This document shows positions 11,243-27,722 of a stretch of 64,000 nt of DNA, piece by piece. A model generated the notes under the pieces. It searched no databases. It was not told where the DNA came from and was given only the letters and a program-made list of their open reading frames with translations. Origin of the DNA: Clostridia bacterium (GTDB lineage Bacteria; Bacillota; Clostridia; UMGS1883; UMGS1540); NCBI GenBank assembly GCA_045533905.1, contig JAZSIR010000021.1, positions 43,283 through 107,282 of the forward strand, given 5' to 3'. How positions within the stretch are numbered: position 1 is the first letter of the stretch; each line of letters opens with the position of its first letter. Position numbers and translations under genes: made by a program.

Positions 11243-11247
11243 TATAT

Positions 11248-11279: not shown

Positions 11280-11280
11280 T

Positions 11281-11439: not shown

Positions 11440-11485
11440 AATTTTGAGGAATTTTCAAATCCAAGTTATGTTATATGTACTTTTA

Positions 11486-12694
11486 TCAATCAACTACACA
11501 ACCATTGGCATCCACCCATTTTTTACTGTCTACGTCAACACAAATCAACAACTTATTTAAATCAGTATCGAAAATCTGCTGTCCAAAAGACGGATAATAG
11601 CTGAGTCTTTCTGCAGTGCTGCAAACAGTTTTGTGGGTCATATTGATTGTGCGAAAGCCTTTACCTGAGCCATTTTCAAAAAGTTTAAAATTGGTTTCGT
11701 TTGTATGATTCCAGTCAGGCTGAAGTGTATATTCAATTCTTCCGCAAAAAGCTCCCGGGTGAATTTCACGCATAACATCCCCGAGTTTTCCTCCGGGGGT
11801 TTGGGTAGCCAAACGTTCGATGTTAAAGCTTATCATAGAAACTTCCTGACCGCCGATTAGAATATTACCATCACGGCCATGGTCACCACATTGATTAAAC
11901 AATGGTAAGTTCACATTTCTTTCGTCGCAACAGTTAATCATGGTGATAGGATGATTGTATCCACAATTAAAATCGTAGTTACCAAAAGTATAGCCATAAA
12001 CATTATGTGCTGCCGCACAATTTAACATAACAACATGTTCTCCGCCCACCTGAATTCCTTCATAGAAACCACCTGATGTAACATTGTCATAGCGAACAAT
12101 AAAGTTATTGCTACCATCGGTCATTGTAAGTCCGATGCAGCCTTCTTTTGCCATATCTGTTACACCCAAATATGTATTATCACGCTTTCCGCGAAGTCTG
12201 ACATTTTTCATCTGAACGCGGTCGCAACGACGCAAATCTATGCAGCGAACAGCTTTCTGATTATGCGCCAATGTCATAGTAATATTTTCGAGATTCAGAA
12301 CCGCTCCGCTATATAAACCTCTGTTTTTCCATTCGGTACGAAAAACAGAATATTCACCTTCTTCTATTTTAGAAAGTGCTTCCTCAGAAACATCAATCTG
12401 TACGCCCTCACGATTTTGTTCGAAGCTGAACGATTGTCCGATAATTGCAATTTCCTTATATAAAGCAGGTATCCTAATAGCTGCCATGGGTCCGCCATCT
12501 TCAAAATCATAAAAATCATCTACACAGTAAACACCGTTCAAAAGATAAACATTCTTTCCTTCTTCTGCGGCAGTCTTAATAGCTTTGTTTATCACAAGTT
12601 CATCATTTTTCCCTGAACAAACAAAATCAATGCCATCCTTTTCATTAAATTTTGAATTCGATGCAGCAACAGTTATAAAAGGTGAAAAACTCAT
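11486..12694 (-). CDS. right-handed parallel beta-helix (pectin-lyase fold) protein, probable glycan-degrading enzyme
   Basis: 402 aa. Repetitive beta-helix turns (NLENITM, RCDRVQMKNVRLRG, GLTMTDGSNNFIVRYDNV, VVMLNCAAAHN). No signal peptide. Confidence 0.5.
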   Translation of the reverse strand: MSFSPFITVAASNSKFNEKDGIDFVCSGKNDELVINKAIKTAAEEGKNVYLLNGVYCVDDFYDFEDGGPMAAIRIPALYKEIAIIGQSFSFEQNREGVQIDVSEEALSKIEEGEYSVFRTEWKNRGLYSGAVLNLENITMTLAHNQKAVRCIDLRRCDRVQMKNVRLRGKRDNTYLGVTDMAKEGCIGLTMTDGSNNFIVRYDNVTSGGFYEGIQVGGEHVVMLNCAAAHNVYGYTFGNYDFNCGYNHPITMINCCDERNVNLPLFNQCGDHGRDGNILIGGQEVSMISFNIERLATQTPGGKLGDVMREIHPGAFCGRIEYTLQPDWNHTNETNFKLFENGSGKGFRTINMTHKTVCSTAERLSYYPSFGQQIFDTDLNKLLICVDVDSKKWVDANGCVVD

Positions 12695-12733
12695 AAAATC
12701 TACTCCTTTTTAATTTTTATTCGGGTTAATACC

Positions 12734-13582
12734 TTAAATATTTAAAAATACTATGGATGCAAGTCCTGTTAAGAAACCTGCAAACTGTATTTTTGTCAGT
12801 TTTTCTTTATAAAATACTTTTGAAACAACATATGTAACAATAATTCCCCCTGCCGAAATCAGCGGAAACATAACGGATACAGCCATTGTTCCCGATAACA
12901 CCATAACAAGCAAATTAACAATACCATTCATAGCACCGGAAGCAACAGTAATAAACCGAGCATGATAAAAATTGCTTTTGAAATTATCTTTATTTGTTAC
13001 CAAAGTGGCTACTGCAAAAATCAAAAACACAATTGCGAGAGAAATTATCATAAATTCATTTTTGTATTCACCGTCGAATTTAATTTGTTGCATTTTCTGA
13101 ACGGTTGTACAAAGACCATTGCCGGCAAACGAAAGAAAAACAAATAAAAGCCATTTTGGTGTAATAGGACACTTGTCATTATTCTTGTTCACAAGGAAAA
13201 GCGAAATCGCAAGCAATCCAAGACCAATTATAAAATATATGCTTATTGGTTCCCTGAGAAAAGCAATTCCGTAAAAGGTTGGAATCATAAGTGAATATGA
13301 AATCATAAGTGACGAAAGTGACAAAGAACCATTTGCAATAGCAAGCATACCAGATAGTGAAGCGGTTGAAAATGATAAGGCAAAGGCTATCGAATATGGA
13401 ACAATCCCGGGATTCCAGCTAATATTCTTTGAAGTAACAAGAAAGAACATCATTGAAAAAAGCGCTGTAAGGGATAAAAAAAGATATGTACCATTTGTAC
13501 CTGTCTTTTCTGTATAGAATTTTTTAGCAATGCTCTGACCGGAAACGCCGGCTATTATAATTATCAAATATATAATGTTCAT
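12734..13582 (-). CDS. DMT/EamA-like 10-TM membrane transporter
   Basis: 282 aa. Entirely hydrophobic segments in a two-fold 5+5 pattern. Confidence 0.6.
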   Translation of the reverse strand: MNIIYLIIIIAGVSGQSIAKKFYTEKTGTNGTYLFLSLTALFSMMFFLVTSKNISWNPGIVPYSIAFALSFSTASLSGMLAIANGSLSLSSLMISYSLMIPTFYGIAFLREPISIYFIIGLGLLAISLFLVNKNNDKCPITPKWLLFVFLSFAGNGLCTTVQKMQQIKFDGEYKNEFMIISLAIVFLIFAVATLVTNKDNFKSNFYHARFITVASGAMNGIVNLLVMVLSGTMAVSVMFPLISAGGIIVTYVVSKVFYKEKLTKIQFAGFLTGLASIVFLNI

Positions 13583-13739
13583 ACGTTATGGCTCTATTTT
13601 CATCTGATACTACAAACAATCCCCATCAACTATATAAATTGTACCACTACATATTAATTTTTGTAAATAAATTATATTCTTTAAATATTGCAATATCTTC
13701 CCAACTATTATATAATATTGTTTAGAGGAGGCGTTAAAA

Positions 13740-14546
13740 ATGATTATAAAATACAATACAGAAAAGTTGCGACGTATTATAACCGATATAACCACCTTGA
13801 CTGGAATAAGCGTAGCCGTATTAGATACAGACTATAGCACCATAATAAGAGGACCACAGAGTAAAGAGTATTGCTCATTGCTGCAAACAATAGAAATTAA
13901 AAAAAAGCATTGCAAACAGTGTGATACAAGAATCTTAAACCGATGCCGTTCCTCTAAAAATTTGGAAAGTCACATATGCAGTGCGGGTCTTTATGATTCT
14001 GCAATGCCCATTATAAAAGACGATAACATCGTCGGATATGTCATAATGGGGCAGGTACGTTCTATGGACTCTCCTGCTCTGCCTAAATATTTACCTGATA
14101 CAGATCCTCAAACACTTAAAAAGTTAAATAAAATCTATGAACAAACTCCATTTATTTCAAAAAATCAATTGGAAGCACTGTATGATCTTCTGCCTCATAT
14201 TCTATTTGATAGTGCGATTGAGTTTGTGTACGATCCTGTTGCAATTGATATACTTAAGTTTATTGATGCAAATTTGCAAGCGGATTTAAGTATAAAACAG
14301 CTATGTGAAAGATTTTATATATCAAAAAACCGATTATATGAAGTTTTTCGGAACAATCTAGGATGCACCGTTACAGGATATATTAACGAACAACGCATCA
14401 AGCAAGCAAAAGAATTACTTAAACAATCAGACGATTCTATCTGTAATATTGCCGAAAAGGTAGGTATTTACAATTATACATATTTCTGTAAACTATTTAA
14501 AAAGCTCAGTGGAGTCACACCCACTGAATACAGAAAAAAGCCATAA
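13740..14546 (+). CDS. AraC-family regulator with an N-terminal PocR-type sensor domain
   Basis: 268 aa. PocR-like segment with a Cys-rich stretch (CSLLQ...HCKQCDTRILNRC...HICSAGLYDSAMPII...GYVIMGQV) and a C-terminal AraC HTH (GIYNYTYFCKLFKKLSGVTPTEYR). Confidence 0.8.
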   Translation: MIIKYNTEKLRRIITDITTLTGISVAVLDTDYSTIIRGPQSKEYCSLLQTIEIKKKHCKQCDTRILNRCRSSKNLESHICSAGLYDSAMPIIKDDNIVGYVIMGQVRSMDSPALPKYLPDTDPQTLKKLNKIYEQTPFISKNQLEALYDLLPHILFDSAIEFVYDPVAIDILKFIDANLQADLSIKQLCERFYISKNRLYEVFRNNLGCTVTGYINEQRIKQAKELLKQSDDSICNIAEKVGIYNYTYFCKLFKKLSGVTPTEYRKKP

Positions 14547-14561
14547 AAGGTTTACGTAAAA

Positions 14562-14590
14562 ATGCTCACTTATGAAATATAAGTGAGCAT
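14562..14590. terminator. stem-loop between the AraC stop and the R2 stop codon
   Basis: ATGCTCACTT-ATGAAATAT-AAGTGAGCAT, a 10-bp perfect stem. Confidence 0.5.
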
Positions 14591-14595
14591 TAATG

Positions 14596-14751
14596 TTATT
14601 TAATTTTCTCCGCTTCAGCCAGCATATTCTCTATAAATATCCCATATCCACGTGTCGGGTCATTTACAAAAACGTGTGTCACAGCTCCAATGAGTTTGCC
14701 ATTCTGAACGATTGGGGAGCCGCTCAAGACTGTTGTCAATAGGGGACAACA
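14596..14751 (-). repeat. R2: displaced copy of the spoIVB 3' end (14596-14724) plus the 7-7-7 inverted repeat (14731-14751)
   Basis: The minus strand reads [42 protein letters not shown]. The inverted repeat is TGTTGTC-AATAGGG-GACAACA. Confidence 0.85.
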
Positions 14752-14753
14752 AA

Positions 14754-16949
14754 TCAGATAAGTTTTTCTAACTCTGCCAGAATTCTATCGGCAATATTCT
14801 TCATCCCAATATCTCCGGGATGGTTTGCAACACCCTCGTGGCTAAATAATCCTATTGCTTTCATTTCATTAAGTTCACCCAGGTCTCCAAGTTCAATACA
14901 GGTCAAATTATTTTCTTTTGCATATTCTAAAATGATTTTATCACCGGGATGTTTCCAAAATCCTGTTGTTAATATAACTTTGGCCTTTAATGATTTGTTT
15001 AAATAGTCAAGCAGTTCTCCCAGTTCACGTTTGAATATTTCACAGTCAAATTCATTTTGCGGACAATTTTCAATAAAACGCATCACGATAATATCAGCAT
15101 CAAAGCTGCGGGCTTCTTCAAAGAGATAATGTTTGGTTGAGCCATTTTTATATTCCATTTCCCATTCCGCAACCTGACAGATGCAAAACGCCGCATCGGC
15201 TGATTTTTCCGAAACCGCAGACATCACACGATGAACATAGTCGTTTTCGGGACAGGAAGCCGCCATTCCGCATTCGTTGTACCAGCCTATCTGCGGGCGG
15301 AAGCCGTGGAGTGTCATCGAATTTCCCACAAACATCACTCGTTTACCTTTGCCATTCAAATTAAAAAATCGAATATGCCCACTATTATTGAGTTGATGAC
15401 CGGCACAAACCGTATTTTTCTGAAGTTGTTGGTATTCAGATGTTTTATAACAGATATTCTGCGTAAACTCTCCTGTAACGAATTGGTTCTCGTCAAAGTT
15501 TTTAAGAAGTTCTTGGTTCCAATACAAATTCTCAATCAATATATCTTTGGTTTGGTGGGTATCATCATAACCTTTGAAATATAGCGTTGGCTTTTGGCGA
15601 CCAAAGAGGTGAATGTTACTGAACAACATATTTCGATTGATGCCTCTGCGTGTGCCACCAGCAGAATACTCATGATGGAAACTGCTGACAATATGTATAA
15701 GATCAGGTGCATAATCTAAATTGGTGTTTTGATATGTTTCTGAATCTTTATTTTGAATAACACCTATTGGAATCACATCATCGTACTCTATATTTATATT
15801 TTTATACACCACATCATGCACATCGGCATAATCCACGTTGGAGCAGTCAAGTACATGACCGGTAACGTGTATGATGTTGCAGTTCTTAAAAACAATATTG
15901 CTTATTTCTTCCGCCCTTGTTTCTGCCCCGATTTCAAGACTTTTTCCCCAGTCGTTCCATATGGTGCAATTTTTTATAACTGTGTTCTTAAAAACATCGT
16001 AAGCTTTTCCTTTACGATACATTGCCTCTTTTACCGCTTTTTCAACATCATCTTCATGATAGCAATCAAAGCCTTTTACACAGATTGAATCATCAAAGGT
16101 TCGTAAAAAGCAATTATCTATAACAACATCTTCGCAATTGTGCATATCAATACCGTCTGAATTGTAACGCCAGCAACCAATAATTTTAACATTTGAAATA
16201 TGCATATTTTTGCAACCGATTGGTCTTATATTATAAACCAATGAATCGCGGATGGTGATGCCTTCAATTTTAATATTGTTACAATATTCAAGTTGAACTG
16301 TGTGCTCTCGTTTTGCATTATTGACTGCCGAAATATTATTTTCTGCATTATACTCAAAAAGTATTTTCTCAGTGTTTTTACTGTTGTCAAGAATACCTCT
16401 GCCCAAAATTTTTATGTTTTCGGAATCTATTGATTTTACACAGGCATAAACCACCGCACCTTCGTCAATAAACAATGTCTGATTGCTTTTTAATACAATT
16501 TCTCCGGCATAGTGTTCACCTTTGCCGAAATATATAACATTAGTATTGTTATAATCAATGTCATAGCAAGGTGTGGGATCAGAAAAAATATGAAGTGCAT
16601 TATTTCTGCCATACGGCTCAACGGTAAAATAAGCAGGCTTTTCAAGAGTAAATGTGATTTTTCCGTCTTTGATTTCCGGTGTTATACCCAATGACAACGG
16701 GCGTATAATAACTTCCTCAAAGGGATTTTGAGGAATTATTTCAAAAGACACCGATTCATCTGAAGAAAGTGAAAGGAAATTAACAAGTTCGGTTTGAGCT
16801 TTACTACGCTGATGCCCCGGCCAGCGACGGTTAAAAGGGAATGCAGACACACGGGCAGTATCAAGTGTTACCGGTTGTCCGTTCACTTTAACCTTATAAT
16901 TTTCTATGTGGTCTTTGGTTTGTGTTACAGGATAAATATTTATCGACAT
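14754..16949 (-). CDS. GH28-like beta-helix glycosidase fused to a C-terminal SGNH/GDSL-type esterase domain
   Basis: 731 aa. [32 protein letters not shown] resembles the GH28 NTDGID/DDC motifs. The C-terminus has [12 protein letters not shown] and [13 protein letters not shown] (SGNH blocks I and V). Confidence 0.65.
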
Positions 16950-17101
16950 ATCTTTGACTCCTTGTATTTTAGAATTACTATGACAATTATAATATTAAAG
17001 CAAGTAGAAAAATAGGTAATTTTTTAATATTAAAGGTATATATTTATTGACATTTTTGAGGATGCAATATATAATAGTCGTTATAAAAACCCCAAAGGAG
17101 T

Positions 17102-18004
17102 TTGATATGTGTGTATGTTTATAAAATCAAAATAAATTGTTTGCCAAAACTAATATGGGCTTGCGAAGTTACTGTTGAAAACTATGAATGGAGAAATCGC
17201 AATAGCAAAGATGTGTTGGAAATTTCGTATTCAAAATTTGACACAAAATCTGTTACCCTTAATAACAATAACTTTCTACTGAAAAACAACACTCTATCCT
17301 GCATAGTGGCTGATGAAAACCGTACAGCCTCCTGCAAATCGGGAAAGCCAATAACAATTGTATCAGTTGCTGTTAGTTTAAGTGATTTTAAATACCAACC
17401 ATGCGAACTTGTTGAAGCTGACTTGAGTGATGAAACAGTTCTTATATTGCCTTTTTATTTGGAAGAGTTGCCAATTAATTATGAACTTGAAATAATAAAG
17501 AAACTTCATGAAATCATTAAACTATCTTCCGCTGATTCGGAAAACAGAAAGATTGCTTTAGCATCTGCATTCTTTAACCTGATATGTGAGATTGATAAAA
17601 TAACACGAAATAATATCTGCAGCCAAAACAACAGCGTCAATTATTATGTAAAAAAAATTGATTACATTATCGAATCCAGATATAATGAGAAAATCACTCT
17701 CCAGTCAGTTGCATCAGAGTTGAATATATCACCGGTTTACCTGTCAACCATTTATAAAAGCATAACCGGTATAAATTTTTCGGAGCAACTTCTTATTGTG
17801 CGGATGAAACACGCAGAAAATTTATTGTTTGATCAAAATATTTCCACAACAAAGGTTGCAGAACTTTGCGGATTTTGCGATGAAAATTATTTCAGGAAAA
17901 GATTCAAACGTTTTTTTGGTATGAATGTAAGCGAGTGCAGAAAAATCAAAAACGGATTAACGCTCTACCACGAAAAACCTCAAAGAAAAAATGACAGCTG
18001 CTAA
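17102..18004 (+). CDS. AraC-family transcriptional regulator
   Basis: 300 aa; the start may be GTG 17111 after RBS AAAGGAG. C-terminal HTH: ISPVYLSTIYKSITGINFSEQL...CGFCDENYFRKRFKRFFGMNVSECR. Confidence 0.8.
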   Translation: MICVYVYKIKINCLPKLIWACEVTVENYEWRNRNSKDVLEISYSKFDTKSVTLNNNNFLLKNNTLSCIVADENRTASCKSGKPITIVSVAVSLSDFKYQPCELVEADLSDETVLILPFYLEELPINYELEIIKKLHEIIKLSSADSENRKIALASAFFNLICEIDKITRNNICSQNNSVNYYVKKIDYIIESRYNEKITLQSVASELNISPVYLSTIYKSITGINFSEQLLIVRMKHAENLLFDQNISTTKVAELCGFCDENYFRKRFKRFFGMNVSECRKIKNGLTLYHEKPQRKNDSC

Positions 18005-18020
18005 ATTTAGCGGCTGTCAT
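17991..18020. terminator. stem-loop overlapping the AraC stop, immediately before the R3 stop codon
   Basis: ATGACAGCTG-CTAAATTTAG-CGGCTGTCAT with one mismatch, followed by TTTT. Confidence 0.45.
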
Positions 18021-18026
18021 TTTAAA

Positions 18027-18203
18027 TTAAAAATTTTCTGAATTCTTTTCTTCAATGCTTCGTGCAGCCGCTAACATATTTTCAATAAATATCCCATAAC
18101 CTCTTGTTGGATCATTTACAAATACGTGTGTCACAGCTCCCACAATTCGGCCATTTTGCAGGATGGGTGAACCAGACACGAGTGTTGTCAATATGGGACA
18201 ACA
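18027..18203 (-). repeat. R3: displaced copy of the spoIVB 3' end (18027-18176) plus the 7-7-7 inverted repeat (18183-18203)
   Basis: The minus strand reads [49 protein letters not shown]. The inverted repeat is TGTTGTC-AATATGG-GACAACA. Confidence 0.8.
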
Positions 18204-18217
18204 ATTTTTTATATTTT

Positions 18218-19027
18218 TTATAATTTACGCATTTTTCCGGGTGTTATTTTATAAACATTTTTAAAAGTGTTCGACATATGAGACTGTGAATAGAATCCGC
18301 ATAGGTGTGAGATTTCGGAAATTGAAATATCCGTTGTGAGTAACATTTCTCGTACTCTTATCAATCTTTGTTTTGTAATATATTTATGTAGCGTTATCCC
18401 TTCGTTTTTTACAAAAACTTCATTAAGATAATATGGATGATAGTGCAATTTATCTGAGATTTCCTTTATATTTACAGATATGTTATTTTCAACGATTTCT
18501 TTAATTTTTTCACATAGAGGTACTTTGTGTTGATTGTTTTCTTTGTTTCTCGACAACTTTAACAAAATTATATTCAAATACAAATTTTCTATATCTTGTT
18601 TTTTTGTGCTTTTTTTACTTTCATTGTAAATGCTTTCTATATCGTTCCCTATTTCTTTTGCATTATTTACATATATTACATCAGAAAAAATATCTGGAAT
18701 TTCAGCATTATACCGAAATATAGTGTCATAATTAAACTCACCCGCTTTTTCCGGTACCATTACTCCTATATGCGAAAACTCTTGCGTAAAATCAAAGTTA
18801 ACTGTATAAAATATTATGGTTTCATTTGAATGAATATGATAGGGAAACCCTGAAGGATAATAAATTAGAGTATTTTTACAAAGAGGGTATGTTTTATTGT
18901 TACATTCAAAAACACCATTACCACTCAAAATATAAATCATACGGCAATCCCTCGCAATTACCATGTTATCTATAAAATATTTTGTTTTTGCAATATATCT
19001 TACAAAAGGCTCATAATACAAAGGCAT
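18218..19027 (-). CDS. AraC-family regulator (cupin sensor plus HTH)
   Basis: 269 aa. N-terminal cupin-like region ([17 protein letters not shown]) and C-terminal HTH ([25 protein letters not shown]). Confidence 0.8.
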
Positions 19028-19127
19028 ACAACCAACTCATTTCTTTGTTTTTTGATAAAATAACTTCGTTATATGCATTGATTATAACATAATTAAATAT
19101 TATAATCAAGAAAAATAATAAAAGAAG

Positions 19128-21431
19128 GTGCTTTTTGTGAAAAATCCATTAATTACAATGTCAGCCGTTACAGGAAGGCCATCATTGAGTTTTGTCCAAA
19201 ATTATATGAAATCTCTTAAGGAAAATGGTATTGAACAAGTTATGATTTACCCGAGGTCAGGATGTGAGCTTGAATATTTAAGCAACGACTGGTTTAAGAC
19301 GGTAGAATACTTTTTAAAGTGTGCAAAGCGGTTGGATATGAACATATGGTTATATGATGATTTTAATTGGCCGTCAGGGGATGCGGGCGGAATGGTTTCA
19401 AAAAAATATATGTTGAAATCAATTACAACAGTAGGGAAAAATATAGGTGAAATCAGTACATATTCAGAGCATAATGGTAAGATTTTCGGAATAAAATCTT
19501 TTCCCGATTTGCTGTCTTTTGATGCTGTTGATTACTTTATAAACATCACTCACGAGCAATATTATAGACATTTTAAAGAATATTTTGGAAACACAATAAA
19601 AGGTATTTTCACCGACGAGCCAAGCATTGGATATTGCTGCAACAATTCATCTGTGCCATATTATGAACAGCTCCCCGATGATTATAAAAGCTTGTGCGGA
19701 GATGACTTTTATGATGATATGGAGCTTGGCAGAGACAAGTTTTACGAAACCGTTATGCTTGCAGTGGCAAACAGGTTTAAAGCATGCTATGTTGATAAAA
19801 TACGCAATTGGTGCGAGGAACACTCAATAGATATGTGTGGTCATATGATATATGATCACGAGCCTTGCGCTGCAACCCGAAATAACGGCAATTTATTGAC
19901 AATGCTTTCGTCATTCTCTATTGCGGGAGTAGATGAAATTAACACCAATCTAAATGATTCCACTCTCCTTTCTCTTTTCGGTGCTGCCCAATATGCAAGA
20001 AAGGGTAATTATGCTATGGCAGAATTATTTGCATTAGGACCGTGTGATATGTCATATACATTAAGAAAAAGTATGATTTTTTATTCTGCCTGCTTCAAAA
20101 TAAACCTTTACTTTCTGGCAGTTTCTCATATGGATATGAGAGGAAATACCGCAATACTTGATTATTTTAATGATTTCTCAATTTCTCAGCCGGATTTTTC
20201 AGGAATGAAGCTTTTGGCACAAGAGGCACAGTTAGCGGCTGAATATGCAGATAAGGATTTTACACCCGATGTATATATTGAATATCCTTCAGAATTATGT
20301 GCCGGTAACTTGATGAATAAAAATTTTAATACCAATATTTTTATAGCTCTTTTAAAACGACTTACCTACTATCAGATACAGTGGAAATTTATCGATAAAG
20401 GTGATGATACAAACAATATTGAAGTAATCAGACTTACAAAGGATAATACCTTAAAATACGCACATATCACAACAACCGATATAGATGAAATATGCAAAGC
20501 CCTTGCACAAAAACCGCTTGTTATCAATATTAACGGTGAACTGTGTGAAAATATTTTTGTGCGAAAATTTGATGATGGCAGCTTTGTTGTAATTAATCTT
20601 GATGCCGCACCGTCAAAATATATTATAAACCGCATTGATAAAGAGATTGACGGTTTTGGTGTAGTAACTGACAAGGATGTAATTCCTACCGAGTATAAAA
20701 AAGTAAAAGCTGAAATTCATGATTTTAATGTAAATTACTGCAATAAAAATATTATTCGTTGTATGTATGTTAATTCACAAGATTCAGCAATCATTAAAAG
20801 CAACTCAAATCAAACAGTTGAATTTGTTTTGAGAAACGATGCAAAAGCATATATTGACAATGAAATCATTACTGCACAAAAATTTTGCACCGACATTCCG
20901 TTTGGAATGCAATGTCTTTACAAATCATCAGAATCCATAACACTTTGTAATGGCAGCTTTGTTGTAACATCAAGCAGCGATTATAAATATATGCCAAGTG
21001 TTCTTATAAAGGGCGACTTTGACGCAGAAAGTATAAGCGGAGATGTTTGTCAAATCAATCTTTCTCCACGAAAAAACACACTTTGTATCGGTGATTATAT
21101 AAGCAGTTTTGGGAAAATTGAACTTTCTCAAAAAGTGTTTGTTCCGAAGGAAGCAAAATTTTTAGAGTTAAAAGGAACAACGCTTTATACCTGTGTATCA
21201 ATAAACGAAAAACCGGTAGGCGAGAGAATATGCTCTCCGTATATTTATAAAATTGACAGTAAATATTGCGATAGATTTGTGGATTTAAAAATAGTACAAT
21301 ATTCAAGCATTGCACCTATTTTTGGTGATGTGGAATATTGGGACAAGCATTCCAAAAATGTGTCGTGGAAAGGCATTAAATCACCACAAAAAACCAATTT
21401 CGGAGTAGCAGGAGCAGAGTGGTTGGTATGA
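19128..21431 (+). CDS. large uncharacterised protein, probable glycoside hydrolase (family not assignable by eye)
   Basis: 767 aa, no signal peptide. The N-terminal segment NIWLYDDFNWPSGDAGG resembles motifs I associate with sugar hydrolases. Divergent from an AraC gene. The start is uncertain (GTG 19128, GTG 19137 or ATG 19158). Confidence 0.35.
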   Translation: MLFVKNPLITMSAVTGRPSLSFVQNYMKSLKENGIEQVMIYPRSGCELEYLSNDWFKTVEYFLKCAKRLDMNIWLYDDFNWPSGDAGGMVSKKYMLKSITTVGKNIGEISTYSEHNGKIFGIKSFPDLLSFDAVDYFINITHEQYYRHFKEYFGNTIKGIFTDEPSIGYCCNNSSVPYYEQLPDDYKSLCGDDFYDDMELGRDKFYETVMLAVANRFKACYVDKIRNWCEEHSIDMCGHMIYDHEPCAATRNNGNLLTMLSSFSIAGVDEINTNLNDSTLLSLFGAAQYARKGNYAMAELFALGPCDMSYTLRKSMIFYSACFKINLYFLAVSHMDMRGNTAILDYFNDFSISQPDFSGMKLLAQEAQLAAEYADKDFTPDVYIEYPSELCAGNLMNKNFNTNIFIALLKRLTYYQIQWKFIDKGDDTNNIEVIRLTKDNTLKYAHITTTDIDEICKALAQKPLVININGELCENIFVRKFDDGSFVVINLDAAPSKYIINRIDKEIDGFGVVTDKDVIPTEYKKVKAEIHDFNVNYCNKNIIRCMYVNSQDSAIIKSNSNQTVEFVLRNDAKAYIDNEIITAQKFCTDIPFGMQCLYKSSESITLCNGSFVVTSSSDYKYMPSVLIKGDFDAESISGDVCQINLSPRKNTLCIGDYISSFGKIELSQKVFVPKEAKFLELKGTTLYTCVSINEKPVGERICSPYIYKIDSKYCDRFVDLKIVQYSSIAPIFGDVEYWDKHSKNVSWKGIKSPQKTNFGVAGAEWLV

Positions 21432-21934
21432 ATATTTTTGCATGGACAAGTGGTATTCTCGGAATAACTGCAAATGTGATAATCTATCAGCAAGAAAGCG
21501 GTAAACGAGTTTTGATATACAAGCTTATTTCTGATTTTATATGGGTTTTTCACTATTATACACTTAACGCATATTCGGGGATGGCGGTAGCAATGGTAGG
21601 TATTTTAAGAGAAATTGTTTTCTTAACCCAACAAAAAACGGAAATATCAAAAATCTGGCTGATAATTTTCATGGGCGTTGCGATGGTATGTGCATCCTTC
21701 ACATGGAAAGGTGTAATAAGCTTTCTGCCCGCCACAGCTTCTGTTTTGTCGGTTATAAGCTTTTGGAAAGCAAATCCGGTATTTACAAGAATAATTGCCT
21801 ATCCTATTTCTATTTGTATGTTAACATACGATATTGTATATAAATCATATACAGGAATTACTAACGAAGTATTAACTTTTATTTCATCTACAATAGGTAT
21901 AATACGAATGCGTAAAAAGGTAAATTTAATATAA
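21419..21934 (+). CDS. YgjV-family small inner-membrane protein
   Basis: 171 aa with ~5 TM segments. Overlaps the preceding gene by 13 nt. Similar in architecture to the backbone gene at 43494-44024. Confidence 0.5.
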   Translation: MVGMNIFAWTSGILGITANVIIYQQESGKRVLIYKLISDFIWVFHYYTLNAYSGMAVAMVGILREIVFLTQQKTEISKIWLIIFMGVAMVCASFTWKGVISFLPATASVLSVISFWKANPVFTRIIAYPISICMLTYDIVYKSYTGITNEVLTFISSTIGIIRMRKKVNLI

Positions 21935-22039
21935 AGGGGTAATAACAATGAGCGAATTAAGAATGGGTGTAATTAATTAGGAAAGAACTTTAATACGCTA
22001 TTGATGCCGGGATTATGAAAAAAATGGCCTAACAGATTT

Positions 22040-22276
22040 TCCTGAAGATACCGGTATCAGGGTTATACAAAGACAGAGTGTATCCCCGGTCCAACAAATC
22101 AGGAGTTAAAAGATGGTGCTGATATGTTTTGCAGATGGATGGAAGAAAATATAAGCTATATGAAAAGGATGCATATCCTGACATTTGCATGGAATGAATT
22201 CGAAGAAGGAGCATGGCTGTGCCCCACATGTATTGATGACTCAAGTATAGACGATAGCCGTATTAAAGCATTTTAA
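22040..22276 (+). pseudogene. frame-disrupted C-terminal remnant of a GH99-like/WbsX-family gene
   Basis: Hand translation gives ...DGADMFCRWMEENISYMKRMHILTFAWNEFEEGAWLCPTCIDDSSIDDSRIKAF*. The AWNEFEEGAW segment resembles the WNEW.EG motif. Upstream frames are broken by stops. Confidence 0.3.
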
Positions 22277-22340
22277 AATATTGTAAAAATGTGGAAGTCA
22301 AAGCTTGGGTAAGCTTTTATATAAATATTAATATGTGATA

Positions 22341-22373
22341 AATATGCTCGCCTTTAATAAAGACGAGCATATT
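22341..22373. terminator. stem-loop immediately before the R4 stop codon
   Basis: AATATGCTCG-(13 nt)-CGAGCATATT, a 10-bp stem. Confidence 0.4.
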
Positions 22374-22374
22374 A

Positions 22375-22530
22375 CTATTTAATCTTCTCAGCTTCGGAGA
22401 GCATATTCTCAATAAATATCCCATACCCACGGGTTGGGTCATTTATAAAAACATGAGTTACTGCACCAACTAACTTGCCATTTTGCAGGATGGGTGAACC
22501 CGACACGACTGTTGTCAATAGGGGACAACA
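22375..22530 (-). repeat. R4: displaced copy of the spoIVB 3' end (22375-22503) plus the 7-7-7 inverted repeat (22510-22530)
   Basis: The minus strand reads [42 protein letters not shown] (TAG stop). The inverted repeat is TGTTGTC-AATAGGG-GACAACA, and the activase gene ends inside it. Confidence 0.85.
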
Positions 22531-23396
22531 TTTTTCACACCGATGGCTTTGATTTTTTCTGCAACCAATGCAATTTCATCCTTTGTAGGTAATGGAACCA
22601 TTGACAAAGGATAACCAAGCTCCATACACTCATATTTTCTTTCCGCATAGTTGTGATAAGGCAGTATCCGCAGTACTTTTACGGATTTTAAATCTTTAAC
22701 AAAGGCTGCAATTTTCTCCGCTTCACCGTCATTCATTGTTGGTATGTATGGATATCTTATTTCTATAGGGATACGCAGAGAATCGATATATTTTATGTTT
22801 TCAAGTATCTGTTTATTTGATACTCCTGTGCATTTTGTGTGAATATCCTCATTGATAGCCTTTATATCAAAGAGAAATGTGTCGGTATAGGGGATGATTT
22901 TATCAAAAGCCACTCTGTTTACAAATCCGCTGGTGTCCACGGCAATATTTATATCGTGTTCTTTCAGAAGCTTTGCAATTTCTACGCAAAAGTCCGCCTG
23001 CATAAGCGGTTCACCACCGGAAAAGGTTACACCTCCGCCACTGCCTTTCATAAATATTTCGTCTTTAAGAACTTCTTTTGCTATTTCCTCTGCAGAAGAT
23101 GTTTTACCTGAAATTTCGAATGCATTATTGGGACAGATATCTTCACATTTCCCGCATAACGTACATTTTTCTTTGATAAACATATGCTTTTCGTCTTTGA
23201 TTACATTTGCCTCACATATTTTGGTGCATCGCATACAATTACCGCAAGCAGTTTTGTCAAAAAGTATTTCTTTTTCAAAGGAAAATGATTCCGGATTGTG
23301 ACACCATTTACATCGGAGGGGACACCCCTTGAAAAATACAGTTGTTCTTATGCCATCGCCGTCGTGAATTTCAAAAGGCTTTATAGCAAAAATCAT
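22515..23396 (-). CDS. glycyl-radical enzyme activating protein (radical SAM)
   Basis: 293 aa. [12 protein letters not shown] (CxxxCxxC) plus two ferredoxin-type clusters, [11 protein letters not shown] and [16 protein letters not shown] motif present. Confidence 0.9.
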
Positions 23397-25594
23397 TAGC
23401 CCGACACCTCACATTGCTTTATAAACATATCTTGTTTTACTTTGCTGAGCTTTACAAAATATTCATTCCAGCCACATACCCTTACCTGAAGAGTTGAATA
23501 TTTTTCAGGATATTTCTGAGCTTCAATCAAAGTCTCTCTTTTTACTATATTTCCCTGCATTGCAAATCCGCCATTATCGAGGAAGATTTTGATAAGAGAA
23601 ATAAAGTCCTCAAGACCTTTTTCGCCTTCAACGGCAGAAGGATGTAATATAAAATCAAACGGTACTCCGTCTACAAAAGATGCTGAGTCAATTTTCAATA
23701 CAGATTGCATATATGCGGTAATACCGCCCCTGTCCATTCCGTCGGATGCACACAGATTTTTGGAAATCGGTTTTTTTGCATTTCTTCCGTCAGATGTAGC
23801 AGATGTTTTTTCTCCGTGTTTTATACAATGATATACCGAATCAAGTCCAAGACGCACCTTGCCGCCTCTTTCGAGATTCTTGTTGCAATAACGATTGGCA
23901 AGATTTTCTAAAATGTCGGTCATTATCTTATCGGGAATGGTCATATTATTTCCATACTTTTCTTTGTCGTTGATAATTCTCTTTTGCAAATCTTCAAACC
24001 CTTTCCAGTCTGACAAAAGAGCTCTTCTCATATCGTCAAGTGAAATTTCCTTAAGGTCAAATACATATTTTTTTATTGCAACAAGAGAATCCACCGTAGT
24101 TGCAAGACCGTGATGCTTTAAAGATAAATTATTATACTTCAAAGGATATTCGTGCACATCCATACCTTTTTCAATACATTCTGAAAAACTACTCGAATAT
24201 ATAGGCGAAGGATTAATAAGTGTACTGTATTCTCCTTGCTTTTCAATGAAATCCAACGCAAAGTCGGTGCAGTAATTCAGTTGTTTTAAGTAGATGTCAA
24301 AAAACTCCTCAAAACTTTTAATATCTGTTTTACTTTCATATCCAACCTGAGAATCTGTCATAATATCTCTACCGCCATTTATAGCAAATTCAACACATTT
24401 TACCGTATTAAAACGAAGTGCCGAAATTTCACCTTCTTCCAATCCCATAATAATAGGCTCATAACAACCAAGTATAACATAGTTCTGTGAATCTTCTTTA
24501 GGTATGCCGATTTTTTCGTATGCATCAAATACCGCTTCGTCATTAATAAGACATATACTGCTGTGTCCGCCTCTTATCATTAAAGCGGCTTTTCTTATGA
24601 TTTTTTCGTCTATGTTTTTATGACATCTTATGTGAATTTTGGGGTCATAAATGCCCATTTCATCATATACGTTTAAAATAAGATGACTGAGCTCATTAGT
24701 GTAATCATTTCCGTCCTTGTCAGAACCGCACATGGTAAATGGTTGTTCAGCAAATCTTTTTGCCGCTGTGAAATGAATGAAATAATACCTGAAGAGCTCT
24801 TTAATTTCTTCTTCTGTTTTTCCTGTTGCCTTGTCTTTTTCAAAATATGGAAAATACATTCTGTCAATGGGCCCGAGTGTTCTGGCTTTTTCGACTCCGA
24901 TTTCCTCAAAATAAAGATAGAGTATGGAAAATTGCATTACCTCATACAAATTTTCGGGTGGCTTTGTCATAAGATTTTTTATGCACCTTGAAAACTCCGG
25001 CACATTGAATTTAAGTGAATATGTGTATATTCTGTCAAGAAGTCTTAAAATTGCATTATAGCATATTAATACAGAGTCAAGAAAAACAATTTGTTTATCC
25101 AGATAGTTTCCGCTTGCTATAAGCTTTTCTTTTGAATTTTTAACGTTTTTAATAATTCCTGCAAAACCATTTTCCAATAGATATGACCAGTTGGGAACAG
25201 TATGAATAAAATCAACCATCATCCAATCAAGACCAACATCTGCAAATTTTTTAAATTTTTCATATTCTTCAGGGAGCTTTTTTTTGCGAATTTTTTCTGT
25301 TTGCGAATAAAAAGCTTTACAAAAAACAGTATCTGTAGCAAAATAAGAATAGTCAATTCCAAGGTTTAGTTTTACCGAAAATGGTGTATGCTCATTGATT
25401 TCCAGTTGCAGATTATCCAAAAGATACGAATATGCATTTGCGCACACAATTTCCCTGGGTAATTCTGTTTCGTAATTTTGAAATTCCTGTAGCTTTGATA
25501 ATAAGATTTTGGGTGAAAGTCCTGTGGATTCATCCCAGATTGCTTGTTCAAATCCATTTTGTATGAAGTCTCTGTTTTCTTTGAATTTTTGCAT
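23396..25594 (-). CDS. glycyl-radical enzyme (PFL-fold), unknown substrate
   Basis: 732 aa. C-terminal glycyl-radical fingerprint TLQVRVCGWNEYFVKL and a mid-protein LGCYEPII Cys loop. Overlaps the activase start by 1 nt. Confidence 0.85.
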   Translation of the reverse strand: MQKFKENRDFIQNGFEQAIWDESTGLSPKILLSKLQEFQNYETELPREIVCANAYSYLLDNLQLEINEHTPFSVKLNLGIDYSYFATDTVFCKAFYSQTEKIRKKKLPEEYEKFKKFADVGLDWMMVDFIHTVPNWSYLLENGFAGIIKNVKNSKEKLIASGNYLDKQIVFLDSVLICYNAILRLLDRIYTYSLKFNVPEFSRCIKNLMTKPPENLYEVMQFSILYLYFEEIGVEKARTLGPIDRMYFPYFEKDKATGKTEEEIKELFRYYFIHFTAAKRFAEQPFTMCGSDKDGNDYTNELSHLILNVYDEMGIYDPKIHIRCHKNIDEKIIRKAALMIRGGHSSICLINDEAVFDAYEKIGIPKEDSQNYVILGCYEPIIMGLEEGEISALRFNTVKCVEFAINGGRDIMTDSQVGYESKTDIKSFEEFFDIYLKQLNYCTDFALDFIEKQGEYSTLINPSPIYSSSFSECIEKGMDVHEYPLKYNNLSLKHHGLATTVDSLVAIKKYVFDLKEISLDDMRRALLSDWKGFEDLQKRIINDKEKYGNNMTIPDKIMTDILENLANRYCNKNLERGGKVRLGLDSVYHCIKHGEKTSATSDGRNAKKPISKNLCASDGMDRGGITAYMQSVLKIDSASFVDGVPFDFILHPSAVEGEKGLEDFISLIKIFLDNGGFAMQGNIVKRETLIEAQKYPEKYSTLQVRVCGWNEYFVKLSKVKQDMFIKQCEVSG

Positions 25595-25728
25595 AATTTA
25601 ATCACCTCTTGCAATGTATTATACCTTTGCTTTAACGCGAAGTAAATGCATTATAGAGTCAAATAGATGTAAAAATCCGTCATTGACATTTATGGATATT
25701 TATTGTATAGTTTAATTGGTGATGATTT

Positions 25729-26499
25729 ATGAATGATATATGTATCAAAGAAATAGTCAATGTTTACCACAGGAATAAAATCATGTGGAGAAGAAATTCT
25801 TTTGCTCCACGTGCTTTCGATGCTGTTGTTTTATTTACACACGGAGAAATAGAATATAAATTTTCTGACAAAACCTTTGTTGCAAAAAAAGGTGATTTTC
25901 TATTGTTGCCGTGCGATATTGCATATTCAGGAAAAATGCATACTGATAATGCTTCTTATTATGTAGTAGACTTTAGGTGTTTATGTGCTGACGAATTTAA
26001 AAATTATATAGCACCGGGTGTTTTTAAAACAGAAAATTTTGGTTTGTTTGTTTCTAAATTTGAAAATGCAGTGAAATCATGGGATGTTCACACACTCAAT
26101 GCAAATCTCAAAATCAAATCATTACTTTATTCTGTGCTTGCAGAATTCCAAAAACAGAAAGAAATGAATTTTAAAACAACAAGTATTTATGATATTATAG
26201 AATACATATCTGATCATATTGGTGATTCAAATCTTAATGTAACAGAGTTATGCAGACTGTTTCATATATCGGATTCTCAACTCAGAAGAAATATTTTAAA
26301 AAATACCGGCTTATCTCCAAACGAATATATATTTACAATAAGAGTGAACAAAGCAAAAAACGAACTCTCGTACACCGATAAACCGATTCAAATGATTTCT
26401 TACGAATGCGGCTTTTCATCACCATATTATTTCTCAAGATGTTTTTCCAAAAGTACAGGAATGTCCCCCTCAAAATACAGAACACTCACCCGTACATGA
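25729..26499 (+). CDS. AraC-family regulator (cupin plus HTH)
   Basis: 256 aa. C-terminal HTH CGFSSPYYFSRCFSKSTGMSPSKYR. Divergent from the GRE operon. Confidence 0.85.
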   Translation: MNDICIKEIVNVYHRNKIMWRRNSFAPRAFDAVVLFTHGEIEYKFSDKTFVAKKGDFLLLPCDIAYSGKMHTDNASYYVVDFRCLCADEFKNYIAPGVFKTENFGLFVSKFENAVKSWDVHTLNANLKIKSLLYSVLAEFQKQKEMNFKTTSIYDIIEYISDHIGDSNLNVTELCRLFHISDSQLRRNILKNTGLSPNEYIFTIRVNKAKNELSYTDKPIQMISYECGFSSPYYFSRCFSKSTGMSPSKYRTLTRT

Positions 26500-26511
26500 G
26501 CAGGTGAGTGT
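26482..26511. terminator. stem-loop overlapping the AraC stop, 12 nt from the spoIVB stop codon (serves both convergent genes)
   Basis: ACACTCACC-(12 nt)-GGTGAGTGT, followed by TTT. Confidence 0.5.
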
Positions 26512-26522
26512 TTTCGATTCTG

Positions 26523-27722
26523 TTATTTAATTTTCTCCACTTCCGCTAGCATGTTTTCAATAAATATCCCATAACCTCTTGTTGGATCATTCACAAAAAC
26601 GTGAGTTATTGCACCAACGAGTTTGCCGTTTTGGATTATAGGCGAACCCGACATACCTTGCACGATGCCGCCGGTGAGCCGCAAAAGGCGCTCGTCCGTG
26701 ATTTTCAGGACCATACTTTTTCCGTTTCCGCTGCGGCGCGAAAGTTTTTCGATTTCGACGGTGTACGCCTTTTTCTCGCCGTCAATACTGCTGAAGATGA
26801 CGGCATCGCCTTTTTGTACCTGTGTGCTCGCAGCAATGGGGACGGAGATGCCGTCCTTTCCCATTTCGCTTTTGCCGAAGAGGCCGACGGCCTCATTTTT
26901 CAAAATGGTGCCCACATCCGCTCCGAACACGCCGCGCACCGCGCCGGGAACGCCGTTCTCCCCTTTATCGATCTGTACGATTTCGCACGCGGTGATGCTG
27001 CCGTGCGCAGGCGGCACGGCTTCTTCGGTATCGGGGTCGAGAATCGCGTGGCCGAGGGCCGCGTAGGTGCCGTCCTCGGGAATGTAGAAGGTGACGGTGC
27101 CGATACCGGCTGTGCTCTCGCGCACCCAAAGGCCGAGCTTGTAGGCGCCGCCATCGGCGTACCAGACGGGTGTGATTTCCGCATCCCACTGCTTTTCCCT
27201 GCGGCAGACCGTGAGCGTCATCGCTTTGCCGCCGCTTTTTACAACGGCCTCCTCGAGCATATCGCTCCCCGAAAGGCGTGCGCCGTTCACGGCCACGATT
27301 CTGTCGCCCGCACGGATGCCGGCTTCCTTCCCCGGGGCGCGGCCTGTTTGGGGAATTTCGGAAAGGCCGATGACGAGAACACCGTCCATATACAGCTTAA
27401 TGCCGACTGCCTCGCCCCCTAACGTGACGTTTCTGCCCTCCACCACGCTTACGGCGGCCGTCCGCCGCCAAAGGCCGAAGGCGGAAAGGTCCATCGTATA
27501 CGCGCCGGCCTTTTCGGGCGTTACCAGAAAGCGGTTGTCTTCTTTTGTAAAATGAAAATCGCCTTCGGAAGCGATGGGCGCAACGAAGGCGGGCAGGGCG
27601 TGCTTTTCCCCGCGGAGCATCACAAACTCCGAAGGCAGAAGCGTGCCGTAAAAATAACAAAAAATCAAGGAAACAGAAAGCGCGCCGACAGCGAGACGGC
27701 GCGCGTATTTTTGCCTCTTCAT
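26523..27722 (-). CDS. spoIVB: SpoIVB sporulation signalling serine peptidase (S55), PDZ domain plus peptidase domain
   Basis: 399 aa. N-terminal TM segment, PDZ (GIRAGDRIVAVNG), and active-site region [42 protein letters not shown]. Confidence 0.9.
   Translation of the reverse strand: MKRQKYARRLAVGALSVSLIFCYFYGTLLPSEFVMLRGEKHALPAFVAPIASEGDFHFTKEDNRFLVTPEKAGAYTMDLSAFGLWRRTAAVSVVEGRNVTLGGEAVGIKLYMDGVLVIGLSEIPQTGRAPGKEAGIRAGDRIVAVNGARLSGSDMLEEAVVKSGGKAMTLTVCRREKQWDAEITPVWYADGGAYKLGLWVRESTAGIGTVTFYIPEDGTYAALGHAILDPDTEEAVPPAHGSITACEIVQIDKGENGVPGAVRGVFGADVGTILKNEAVGLFGKSEMGKDGISVPIAASTQVQKGDAVIFSSIDGEKKAYTVEIEKLSRRSGNGKSMVLKITDERLLRLTGGIVQGMSGSPIIQNGKLVGAITHVFVNDPTRGYGIFIENMLAEVEKIK

Follow-up and report, generated by a model that had tools for sequence, protein, structure and literature searches.

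A putative serine recombinase attachment site at the catalytic serine codon of the sporulation protease gene spoIVB accumulates recombinase-less cassettes in gut Clostridia

Results

The live spoIVB gene is a chimera with a foreign 3' end

The stretch of DNA analyzed here (the window) is 64 kb of a contig from a Clostridia bacterium (GenBank JAZSIR010000021.1), and our subject is its spoIVB gene, which encodes a sporulation protease, together with the low-GC island at whose edge the gene lies. The gene is an open reading frame (ORF) of 399 aa at positions 26523-27722 on the minus strand. Its product matched Peptidase_S55 (PF05580) with 256 bits over positions 2-210 of 210 and contains a PDZ domain (Pfam); with the catalytic serine in GxSGSP, it is a full-length member of the peptidase S55 family. 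The GMSGSP stretch occupies residues 356-361, the SGSP codons lie at 26651-26640, and 43 residues run from Met357 to the end. The island extends over ~9100-26650 with a GC content of 0.33-0.41, compared with 0.50-0.51 on either flank, and within it the last ~130 nt of spoIVB are repeated in four complete copies (R1 to R4) and one partial copy (R0).

An earlier interpretation made without database searches (the sequence-only reading) had proposed that the composition of spoIVB changes at ~26654 and that homology with the displaced copies starts at the SGSP codons. The break was borne out: maximum-likelihood analysis along the gene placed a GC change-point at 26640 (0.596 to 0.347) and a change-point in the GC content of third codon positions (GC3) at 26660 (0.71 to 0.33), and the observed likelihood ratio was matched by none of 5000 codon-order permutations. 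Windows of 100 nt agreed, with a GC content of at least 0.55 above 26650 and of 0.35-0.39 below it. The SGSP coordinates were exact, as was the claimed distance of 117 nt (stop included) after the Pro codon in the live gene, R2 and R4, which corresponds to 132 nt from NTG to stop. Homology with the downstream copies begins at the Met/Ser codons. More exactly, the junction falls on the TG at 26653-26652, in the Met codon that immediately precedes SGSP.

The sequence-only reading had also asked whether the last 43 residues are phylogenetically discordant with the rest of the gene, and they are. The nearest nucleotide relatives of the 5' part were the syntenic orthologs L066, L065 and L064 at ~68% identity (L numbers are our labels for loci), while those of the 3' module were cassette fragments of unrelated hosts at 84-86% identity. 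The ortholog L066 lacks the island, and the module was only 59% identical to its native GC-rich 3' end. At the protein level, the last 43 residues averaged 86% identity among homologs whose N-terminal parts were only 42-72% identical to the window protein, and the noncatalytic tail ...EKIK was found in 41 of 119 SpoIVB homologs. Among live genes, the change-points of GC-richer hosts clustered at the Ser codon (-3 codons in the window, 0 in L044, +6 in L004); in lower-GC hosts they lay at 0 in L020 and at +6 in L038. The live spoIVB is a chimera whose AT-rich 3' module is foreign from the catalytic serine codon on, and its parts are as follows.

26655-27722, minus strand: host-derived 5' part of spoIVB, with signal, PDZ and most of peptidase S55; GC 0.60, GC3 0.71
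Last ~24 nt of this 5' part, minus strand: B-arm of the predicted attachment site, ACCGGCGGCATCGTGCAAGGTA, which fits the live-gene consensus ACNGGNGGNATNNTNCARGGNA followed by TG
26652-26653, minus strand: TG of the Met357 codon, the probable 2-bp crossover dinucleotide, invariant across attB-type and attP/attR-type sites
26523-26651, minus strand: element-supplied 3' module of the live gene, GC 0.38, with the catalytic Ser codon TCG at 26651-26649, the Thr393 equivalent and the stop codon TAA at 26525-26523

Displaced spoIVB ends delimit five cassettes in the window

All four full displaced copies keep an open, near-consensus reading frame, and identity among the repeated spoIVB 3' ends is 65-88%. 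These ends delimit five cassettes of 2.3-4.3 kb, whose cargo consists of AraC or DeoR regulators and enzymes. The sequence-only reading had described four displaced ends, R1 to R4, pushed downstream by successive arrivals. That they are former 3' ends, each joined to the right-end arm of the cassette that displaced it, holds up; the count rises to five with the partial copy R0. Neither the conserved arm nor the lack of recombinases in the modules had been noticed in that reading. In order from spoIVB outward, the features are listed below.

22507-26522, minus strand: cassette D, cargo and right-end arm (Pfam, NCBIfam, motif; GC 0.345)
25729-26499, plus strand: AraC regulator of cassette D
23396-25594, minus strand: glycyl-radical enzyme of cassette D
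22515-23396, minus strand: radical-SAM activase of the glycyl-radical enzyme
22538-22507, minus strand: P-arm of cassette D (A-tract, inverted repeat and AGTC)
22375-22506, minus strand: displaced 3' end R4, GTG and SGSP... to TAG, 43 encoded residues
18180-22374, minus strand: cassette C, cargo and arm (GC 0.329)
21419-21934, plus strand: YgjV-like membrane protein of cassette C
19128-21431, plus strand: 767-aa protein of cassette C without Pfam or NCBIfam family match
18218-19027, minus strand: AraC regulator of cassette C
18211-18180, minus strand: P-arm of cassette C
18027-18179, minus strand: displaced 3' end R3, GTG and SGSP..., with a diverged tail and its stop at 18029-18027
14728-18026, minus strand: cassette B, cargo and arm (GC 0.354)
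17102-18004, plus strand: AraC regulator of cassette B
14754-16949, minus strand: GH28-like (polygalacturonase-like) 731-aa enzyme of cassette B
14759-14728, minus strand: P-arm of cassette B
14596-14727, minus strand: displaced 3' end R2, TTG and SGSP... to TAA
11416-14595, minus strand: cassette A, cargo and arm
13740-14546, plus strand: PocR/AraC regulator of cassette A
12734-13582, minus strand: EamA transporter of cassette A
11486-12694, minus strand: 402-aa protein of cassette A without Pfam or NCBIfam family match
11447-11416, minus strand: P-arm of cassette A
11281-11415, minus strand: displaced 3' end R1, ATG and SGSP... to TAA
9160-11280, minus strand: cassette Z, cargo with the right-end arm lost (GC 0.41)
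10535-11242, plus strand: DeoR regulator of cassette Z
9104-10423, minus strand: glycerol-1-phosphate-dehydrogenase-like iron-containing alcohol dehydrogenase (Fe-ADH) of cassette Z
9104-9159, minus strand: partial remnant R0, the oldest, at the distal island edge, with approximately the final 18 codons of a spoIVB 3' end, ...GIIENIFSEAEKTE and a stop

The Fe-ADH ORF ends by running in frame into R0, and GC returns to ~0.5 below 9000; a deletion apparently joined the two and removed the arm of cassette Z. The module at the live gene belongs to cassette D, which the sequence-only reading took for the most recent arrival. That the C-terminal ~43 residues are element-supplied is supported by the chimeric gene, while the order D, C, B, A need not equal the order of arrival: D is probably the newest module, and the array could instead have arrived as one block.

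No recombinase, transposase, relaxase or transfer gene was present in the cassettes when ORFs of at least 180 aa were scanned against Pfam, and no recombinase, transposase or transfer gene was found among the flank ORFs scanned at the same length (46073-54870 lay outside the scan). Rfam at E up to 0.1 gave no match within the island, so the inverted repeat in the arm is not a known RNA, and the sole tRNA of the window, at 60395, is distant from the island.

As for cargo, the 767-aa and 402-aa proteins may be uncharacterized catabolic enzymes, since each shares its cassette with an AraC regulator and with a membrane protein or transporter. The best NCBIfam similarities of the cassette D glycyl-radical enzyme were to sulfopropanediol and hydroxyproline dehydratases and CutC, all far below equivalog cut-offs; glycyl-radical enzymes are cassette cargo in ~9 other loci.

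The junction falls at the catalytic serine codon

The catalytic residue of Bacillus subtilis SpoIVB is Ser378 (PMC6581720, PMC12502668), and Thr393 has been proposed as the third residue of the active site (PMC12502668). The window SpoIVB aligned to PDB 9lnf_A with E = 5.7e-67, where Ser378, located by counting back from Ser426 on the chain (a mutant that reads GMAGAP), corresponds to the first Ser of MSGSP. This agrees with the claim of the sequence-only reading that GxSGSP carries the catalytic serine. The equivalents of His236 and Asp363 lie in the host 5' part, and on this alignment the active site is divided, with His236 and Asp363 encoded by the host and Ser378 and Thr393 by the element. 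Each insertion thus exchanges the codon for the catalytic serine and has to remain in frame. Consistent with this, ATG-Ser-Gly-Ser-Pro is read across the junction in 32 of 32 live genes, as expected if each integration rebuilds the site in frame. An attachment point inside an active site is unusual, as had been remarked, and it is also logical because this is the most conserved DNA of spoIVB.

A conserved arm and an invariant TG define a predicted attachment site

Each full displaced copy is preceded by a conserved 25-nt motif, TTGTTGTCCCCTATTGACAACAGTC, which occurs in only those four places in the window (0 expected) and takes the form TTGTTGTCCC(C/A)(T/C)ATTGACAAC-A(G/C)TC. The motif belongs to an arm of ~32 bp composed of an A-rich tract and a 7-bp inverted repeat, TGTTGTC-N7-GACAACA (7-nt spacer), which ends at the invariant TG before the catalytic Ser codon. 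Where the arm would be, the live spoIVB is plain GC-rich coding sequence. Conservation on the element side reaches about 32-35 nt upstream of the TG and then stops, which is the size of a half-site of a large serine recombinase (LSR).

TG is the only dinucleotide invariant in every site, attB-type and attP/attR-type alike, and it is retained even where the Ser codons of the two partners differ (AGC vs TCN), as in R2 vs R3. The base before it is A in 32 of 32 live genes and G, C, T or A in the remnants. These observations point to crossover at the TG of the Met codon.

One metagenome locus, L145, has CA in place of TG after the arm. There the arm is joined to a reverse-complemented B-arm, so the element sits in the opposite orientation; orientation thus depends on the central dinucleotide. 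Orientation set by a nonpalindromic central dinucleotide is a hallmark of serine integrases of the phiC31/Bxb1 class. The ~32-bp arm, the invariant TG and the inverted CA variant together fit the architecture of an LSR attachment site. The inverted element (L145:4440-5851, contig JAEIGA010053596.1) carries an LSR triplet of the clade described below and occupies the same spoIVB position; its spoIVB is split and not rebuilt, with a truncated protein, ...TGGIVQGM-GVCYNRDNTVKLE and a stop, that lacks the catalytic Ser.

Several other origins or roles of the arm and its junctions were considered. Judged by eye, the inverted repeat looks an unlikely promoter or terminator, since its stem is weak and the sense strand has no T-run after it. 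An Xer/dif-like or tyrosine-recombinase core site centered on the inverted repeat does not fit, as remnants hold the whole repeat and the live gene holds none of it. A target-site duplication was rejected given that the flanking fragments are mostly 20-35% different. HUH/Y1 (IS200-like) transposition was also rejected, since the one Y1_Tnp gene found, in L066, has unrelated hairpins of its own behind a native GC-rich spoIVB end.

The same arrangement recurs in gut Clostridia

We searched public genomes, one per species, for exact matches to the arm motif. This returned 62 motif loci, nearly all in Clostridia metagenome-assembled genomes (MAGs) of animal and human guts. Among viral contigs, none had the motif. 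In 61 of 64 motif occurrences, the motif is followed by three variable bases and NTG and then by an in-frame [V/L/M]SGSP... spoIVB fragment, and at 26 loci spoIVB, or as much of it as the locus contains, is found on the same strand 1-7 kb upstream, separated from the motif by cargo. Cargo in the 25 complete cassettes from other genomes included AraC regulators, FAD oxidoreductases, glycyl-radical enzymes, Phd/YefM antitoxins, DUF4417, ImmA/IrrE-type peptidases and AbiEii. Of the 75 Pfam families matched in them, the 25 most frequent contain none for a recombinase.

The nearest SpoIVB homologs on long contigs share the upstream synteny of a parE/gyrB-like gene, MatE and spoIVB, and the gene upstream of spoIVB in the window is a MatE transporter. 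Three of four such homologs have variable downstream DNA of low GC. The fourth, L066, has a native GC-rich 3' end followed by DNA of host-like GC and was used as the unoccupied reference.

A few of these loci have features of their own. Directly behind the native spoIVB of L066, at 11190-12060, lies a 247-aa Y1_Tnp (IS200/RAYT-like) gene with hairpin repeats of its own (GACAGGGGACGGTTCCCTGTC) on either side. One of these repeats extends into the final spoIVB codons; they are unrelated to the cassette arm. A recurrent cargo in L006, L010, L014, L017, L021, L038, L040 and L057 comprises a DUF4417 protein (~220-250 aa) and two small ORFs, one with a toxin-like N terminus (GAGNSGLYNNTKGSK...) in the loci inspected, and may be a toxin-immunity or defense module. 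At L019 (~1700-2100, motif on the minus strand at 1872-1892), non-spoIVB sequence comes after the arm, CTG GCA GGT AAG CCT..., and may represent either insertion at a secondary site or a remnant with a deletion. A Schlafen AlbA_2/HATPase_c_4 protein is encoded by the gene that ends at this arm, and likewise in L009. In several MAGs, the arm motif occurred on two separate contigs, often at contig ends (L013/L026, L015/L023, L012/L045, L047/L048 and L028/L059). Assemblies of MAGs probably break inside these repeat-containing arrays, so that counts of arrays are likely too low.

A clade of large serine recombinases adjoins the arm

Of the 62 motif loci, two have an LSR directly upstream of the motif: L002 and, at its edge, L046. 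Three tandem LSR genes, with Resolvase, Recombinase and Zn_ribbon_recom domains and of 554, 573 and 535 aa, were found in L002, L067, L068, L069, L070 and L071. The triplet is preceded by genes for a RecD2-like helicase, DUF3854, a ParM-like ALP_N protein, HTH_3, sigma70_r4, HTH_16 and DUF6870, which are typical of conjugative or plasmid-like elements. About 27 nt separate the end of the third LSR gene (LSR3) from the same arm, and beyond the arm come a displaced SGSP or SGCP fragment and, after it, host genes. No fewer than two distinct hosts show this layout, as does a relative of 60% identity whose arm is a variant.

A metagenome scan with alignment of LSR3 homologs extended this to 80 loci of 49-99% identity, 75 of them assessable. 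An SGSP fragment lies no more than 300 nt past the LSR stop in 60 of the 75 and within 1.6 kb in about eight more. The arm consensus aaaaaaTGTTGTCCCTATcTTGACACAnCC-N-TG is common to the clade, and the perfect inverted repeat of the window is the variant of one subfamily. The clade thus appears to be dedicated to the spoIVB site, because SGSP fragments adjoin LSR3 and the arm consensus is conserved clade-wide. An LSR of its own, the mark of an autonomous element, is carried in L002, L067-L071 and L072-L151 and by none of the window cassettes; tblastn with the three LSRs found none in the entire 64-kb window. The autonomous elements probably carry their own spoIVB 3' module. We found no close annotated phage or plasmid relative of the LSRs or of the element.

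Cassettes are shared between hosts and reshuffled by homologous recombination

Cassette A, the fourth in the window array, matches the spoIVB-proximal cassette of L037 at 97-100% identity over ~3.1 kb; the unrelated host of L037 is AT-rich (spoIVB GC3 of 0.23 vs 0.70 in the window). Likewise, L050 and L051 share a cassette with 100%-identical terminal blocks, and their spoIVB 5' parts are ~50% identical. Near-identity between such different hosts shows that recombinase-less cassettes have been shared recently. In both pairs, the right boundary of identity falls exactly between the arm and NTG, where integration at the TG would place it.

The fragment left of the cargo was co-inherited in the trio L044, L049 and L054. 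Within arrays, adjacent fragments share 100%-identical tracts at either end, and near-identical prefixes of at least 30 nt occur in 11% of adjacent fragment pairs vs 0.3% of inter-locus pairs; the cargo itself is mosaic, as the comparison of L050 and L051 shows. We conclude from these sequence patterns that gene conversion and homologous recombination between the ~130-bp repeats probably overlay the site-specific events and partly uncouple fragments from cargo.

Differences among the remnants fall at third codon positions in 71% of cases and are synonymous in 77%, nearly the same as among live ends, although the remnants were chosen by protein pattern and the set is biased toward intact ones. 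The remnants would therefore have diverged while they were live ends and have been displaced for a short time. By tblastn at E < 1e-5, no LSR pseudogene fragment turned up in the window, nor did one in 60 of the 62 motif loci.

Discussion

A model for cassette accretion at spoIVB

We propose that LSRs integrate elements at the TG of spoIVB and that the recombinase-less cassettes were most likely inserted in trans, a reading to which we assign a probability of roughly 0.8. According to this model, spoIVB would be the dedicated chromosomal attachment site of an LSR clade carried on large mobile elements of gut Clostridia. The element-side site would consist of a P-arm of ~32 bp (A-tract, TGTTGTC-N7-GACAACA, NTC, N), the TG, and a copy of the last 42 spoIVB codons. 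Integration would join the host B-arm 5' part to the 3' module of the element, which restores the gene end, and would at the same time attach the P-arm to the former 3' end, which would persist downstream as a silent remnant. As the right half-site of the element would be another spoIVB 3' end, attL would equal a fresh attB and the arm plus remnant would equal attP, so that further elements could insert at the same point and build tandem arrays. The five window modules would be nonautonomous cassettes equipped with both site components and either inserted in trans by LSRs or carried in cis beside an autonomous element. Homologous recombination and gene conversion between the ~130-bp repeats would then reshuffle fragments and cargo. 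Given the equivalence of attL and attB, excision might not require a directionality factor.

Several observations weigh against this reading. The 64-kb window holds no LSR, which leaves insertion of its cassettes in trans a matter of deduction. A SpoIVB N-terminal part was present within 10 kb upstream of the LSRs in 0 of 80 loci; the elements reach farther than that upstream of the LSRs, and the attL of an autonomous element was not seen. In both pairs of shared cassettes, the fragment left of the cargo was not co-inherited, with 78-80% identity up to the stop codon, which is not expected from LSR action alone. We ascribe this to gene conversion, of which adjacent fragments bear signs, and less probably to a second recombination point near the stop codon. 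The live spoIVB of L021 (L021:3549-4788) retains a GC-rich, native-looking 3' end (GC3 0.58) with the nonconsensus tail ...FAELMMDKTEKISD, and yet a cassette, an arm and a remnant lie 3' of it, which fits poorly with simple replacement of the end at the TG. Gene conversion from a native remnant is one possible cause. Finally, in the standard model of LSR action, a site made of one P-type and one B-type half-site is auto-inhibited.

Some of the same observations would be expected if no site-specific recombinase took part and the arm had another role. Circles bearing a ~130-bp spoIVB 3' fragment would then integrate by RecA-dependent, Campbell-type crossover anywhere in the homology and leave via the direct repeats. 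Cassettes without recombinases, the frequent uncoupling of fragment and cargo and the native-like live end of L021 are all in keeping with this, and the 100%-identity tracts of adjacent fragments and the mosaic cargo show that homologous recombination is active. The position of the arm, however, is fixed relative to the TG across the entire LSR clade and directly downstream of the LSR genes; shared cassettes end exactly where the arm meets NTG; and the change-points of the GC-richer hosts (the window, L044 and L004) gather at the Ser codon rather than spreading over 43 codons, with those of L020 and L038 at 0 and +6. Fragments of 65-88% identity are moreover a poor RecA substrate, and the inverted CA variant of L145 cannot come from homologous recombination. 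We regard this explanation as very unlikely. That the break is an artefact, either a chimeric metagenome assembly at a conserved stretch or ordinary compositional heterogeneity within a gene, is scarcely credible: the contig is apparently of metagenome type and repeats could mislead an assembler, but host-like GC of 0.50-0.51 resumes on both sides of the island, the synteny upstream of spoIVB is common to relatives, the repeats are too divergent to collapse, the same architecture appears in more than 60 independent assemblies from different studies, and none of the 5000 permutations reached the break.

Another explanation is that the cassettes are decayed stumps of successive autonomous LSR elements, or that the whole array was acquired as one block. 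Decay of integrative and conjugative elements (ICEs) or integrative and mobilizable elements (IMEs) is the textbook origin of cis-mobilizable elements (CIMEs) (PMC5704250); the autonomous elements do use the same site, and the arm of cassette Z was lost through deletion. Against decay, the cassettes are compact, intact regulator-plus-enzyme units shared intact between hosts, LSR pseudogenes are lacking by the tblastn search given above, and the third-position bias of the remnants, being like that of live ends, leaves little time since displacement. A further objection is that the same cassette, at 97-100% identity, stands at array position 4 here and at position 1 in the very different host L037. 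We consider this explanation unlikely and favor LSR-mediated integration with insertion of cassettes in trans.

Relation to known systems

Judged by analogy, the closest functional counterpart would be staphylococcal cassette chromosome mec (SCCmec) with the ccr-less pseudo-SCC cassettes at rlmH, and the closest concept would be the CIME/accretion model. In staphylococci, the LSRs CcrA and CcrB insert SCCmec cassettes into the 3' part of rlmH (orfX), whose end is rebuilt. Repeated insertion gives tandem composite islands bounded by direct repeats, and many ccr-less cassettes, with adaptive cargo, are thought to depend on recombinases in trans. The spoIVB system shares several LSRs per element (a triplet here), a target in the 3' portion of a conserved housekeeping gene, a rebuilt gene end, tandem islands and recombinase-less cassettes. 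It differs in its target, spoIVB rather than rlmH, and in the crossover, which lies 42 codons from the stop at the catalytic serine codon, so that ~130 bp of coding sequence are replaced instead of a few codons. The LSRs scored 45-101 bits against the NCBIfam CcrA/CcrB models, far below the cut-offs of 700-900, which sets the system apart from SCC proper. Its hosts are anaerobic gut Clostridia, and its cargo consists mainly of regulator-plus-catabolic-enzyme units together with toxin-antitoxin and defense genes.

CIMEs keep their att sites without genes for integration or transfer and stand in tandem at the 3' end of a target gene, as in the ICESt1-related elements at fda (PMC5704250). Newcomers insert into the att site that holds the gene end, and CIMEs, described as decayed ICEs or IMEs, are mobilized in cis with an autonomous neighbor (PMC5704250). 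Cassettes D, C, B and A correspond to this description, each with a spoIVB 3' module on the left, a P-arm on the right and no recombinase, relaxase or transfer gene. In contrast, ICESt1-type systems use tyrosine integrases with short segments of identity, and the cassettes here look compact and functional and outnumber the autonomous elements by far (about 60 of 62 motif loci). In Streptococcus, ICEs with serine recombinase triplets at one extremity integrate site-specifically into the protein-coding genes mutT, traG and hsdM, which are disrupted (PMC4701971). Our elements likewise have three tandem LSR genes at one end; they differ in target gene and host class, and, apart from the inverted L145, they bring a 3' module that rebuilds spoIVB.

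There are also similarities to integrons: a fixed insertion point beside a conserved platform, a series of small recombinase-less cassettes that end in a conserved site with an inverted repeat and, as it would seem here, the newest cassette nearest the platform. The system differs from integrons in having no adjacent IntI tyrosine recombinase, no attI or attC and no single-stranded folded site, in cassettes with their own regulators and several genes, and in an LSR located on a separate element; no tyrosine recombinase was among the scanned window ORFs (46073-54870 again excepted). We put forward only tentatively, at less than even odds, that spoIVB nevertheless acts as an integron-like capture platform, in which LSRs alone would excise, reorder and reinsert single cassettes or blocks and so maintain a reversible, species-crossing pool of regulator-plus-enzyme (and defense) cassettes in gut Clostridia. 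In such a platform, the three LSR paralogs might be assigned one each to the half-site types P, B and B'=P'.

Two further comparisons concern other kinds of element. The skin element in sigK and SPbeta in spsM (LSRs SpoIVCA and SprA) split their genes, which the mother cell restores through excision at a set time in development; spoIVB is expressed in the forespore. An LSR-type element inside a sporulation gene is common to both situations, but spoIVB stays intact as the element supplies the missing end, and only L145 resembles the splitting type. IS200/IS605 (HUH Y1) elements have a Y1 transposase and subterminal hairpins at both ends, insert 3' of a short target and do not restore a gene end, whereas the cassettes have an inverted repeat at one end only.

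Implications

The system reads as LSR-driven accretion of nonautonomous cassettes at the catalytic serine codon of a sporulation protease gene, widespread in gut Clostridia, in which the LSRs would act in trans. Among the hits listed, searches of a paper library gave no relevant paper on spoIVB as an integration target and none linking spoIVB to serine recombinases. The insertion hotspot and cassette family extend over more than 60 representative genomes of uncultured gut Clostridia and are also present in numerous gut metagenomes of humans and animals. Between species, the cassettes transport glycyl-radical enzymes, pectin-type hydrolases, transporters, toxin-antitoxin and defense genes, each cassette with its own regulator, and such transfer is a plausible route for rapid adaptation to gut niches. 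The LSR clade, with its predicted attB, attP and TG crossover and a natural orientation-switch variant, could serve genome engineering of spore-forming anaerobes. For recombinase biology, the system raises the questions of how an LSR handles an attP whose right half copies the right half of attB, and what purpose three recombinases serve. The C-terminal 42 codons of many SpoIVB proteins are derived from mobile elements and will distort phylogenies, and remnants can be miscalled as genes.

Neighboring genes

In Bacillus, spo0A follows spoIVB; the two are not adjacent in the window. The flank distal to spoIVB, at 138-7946, is a glycogen/starch cluster with a glgA-like starch synthase gene, two glgC/glgD-like nucleotidyl transferase genes, a glgB-like branching enzyme gene and an alpha-amylase-family gene.

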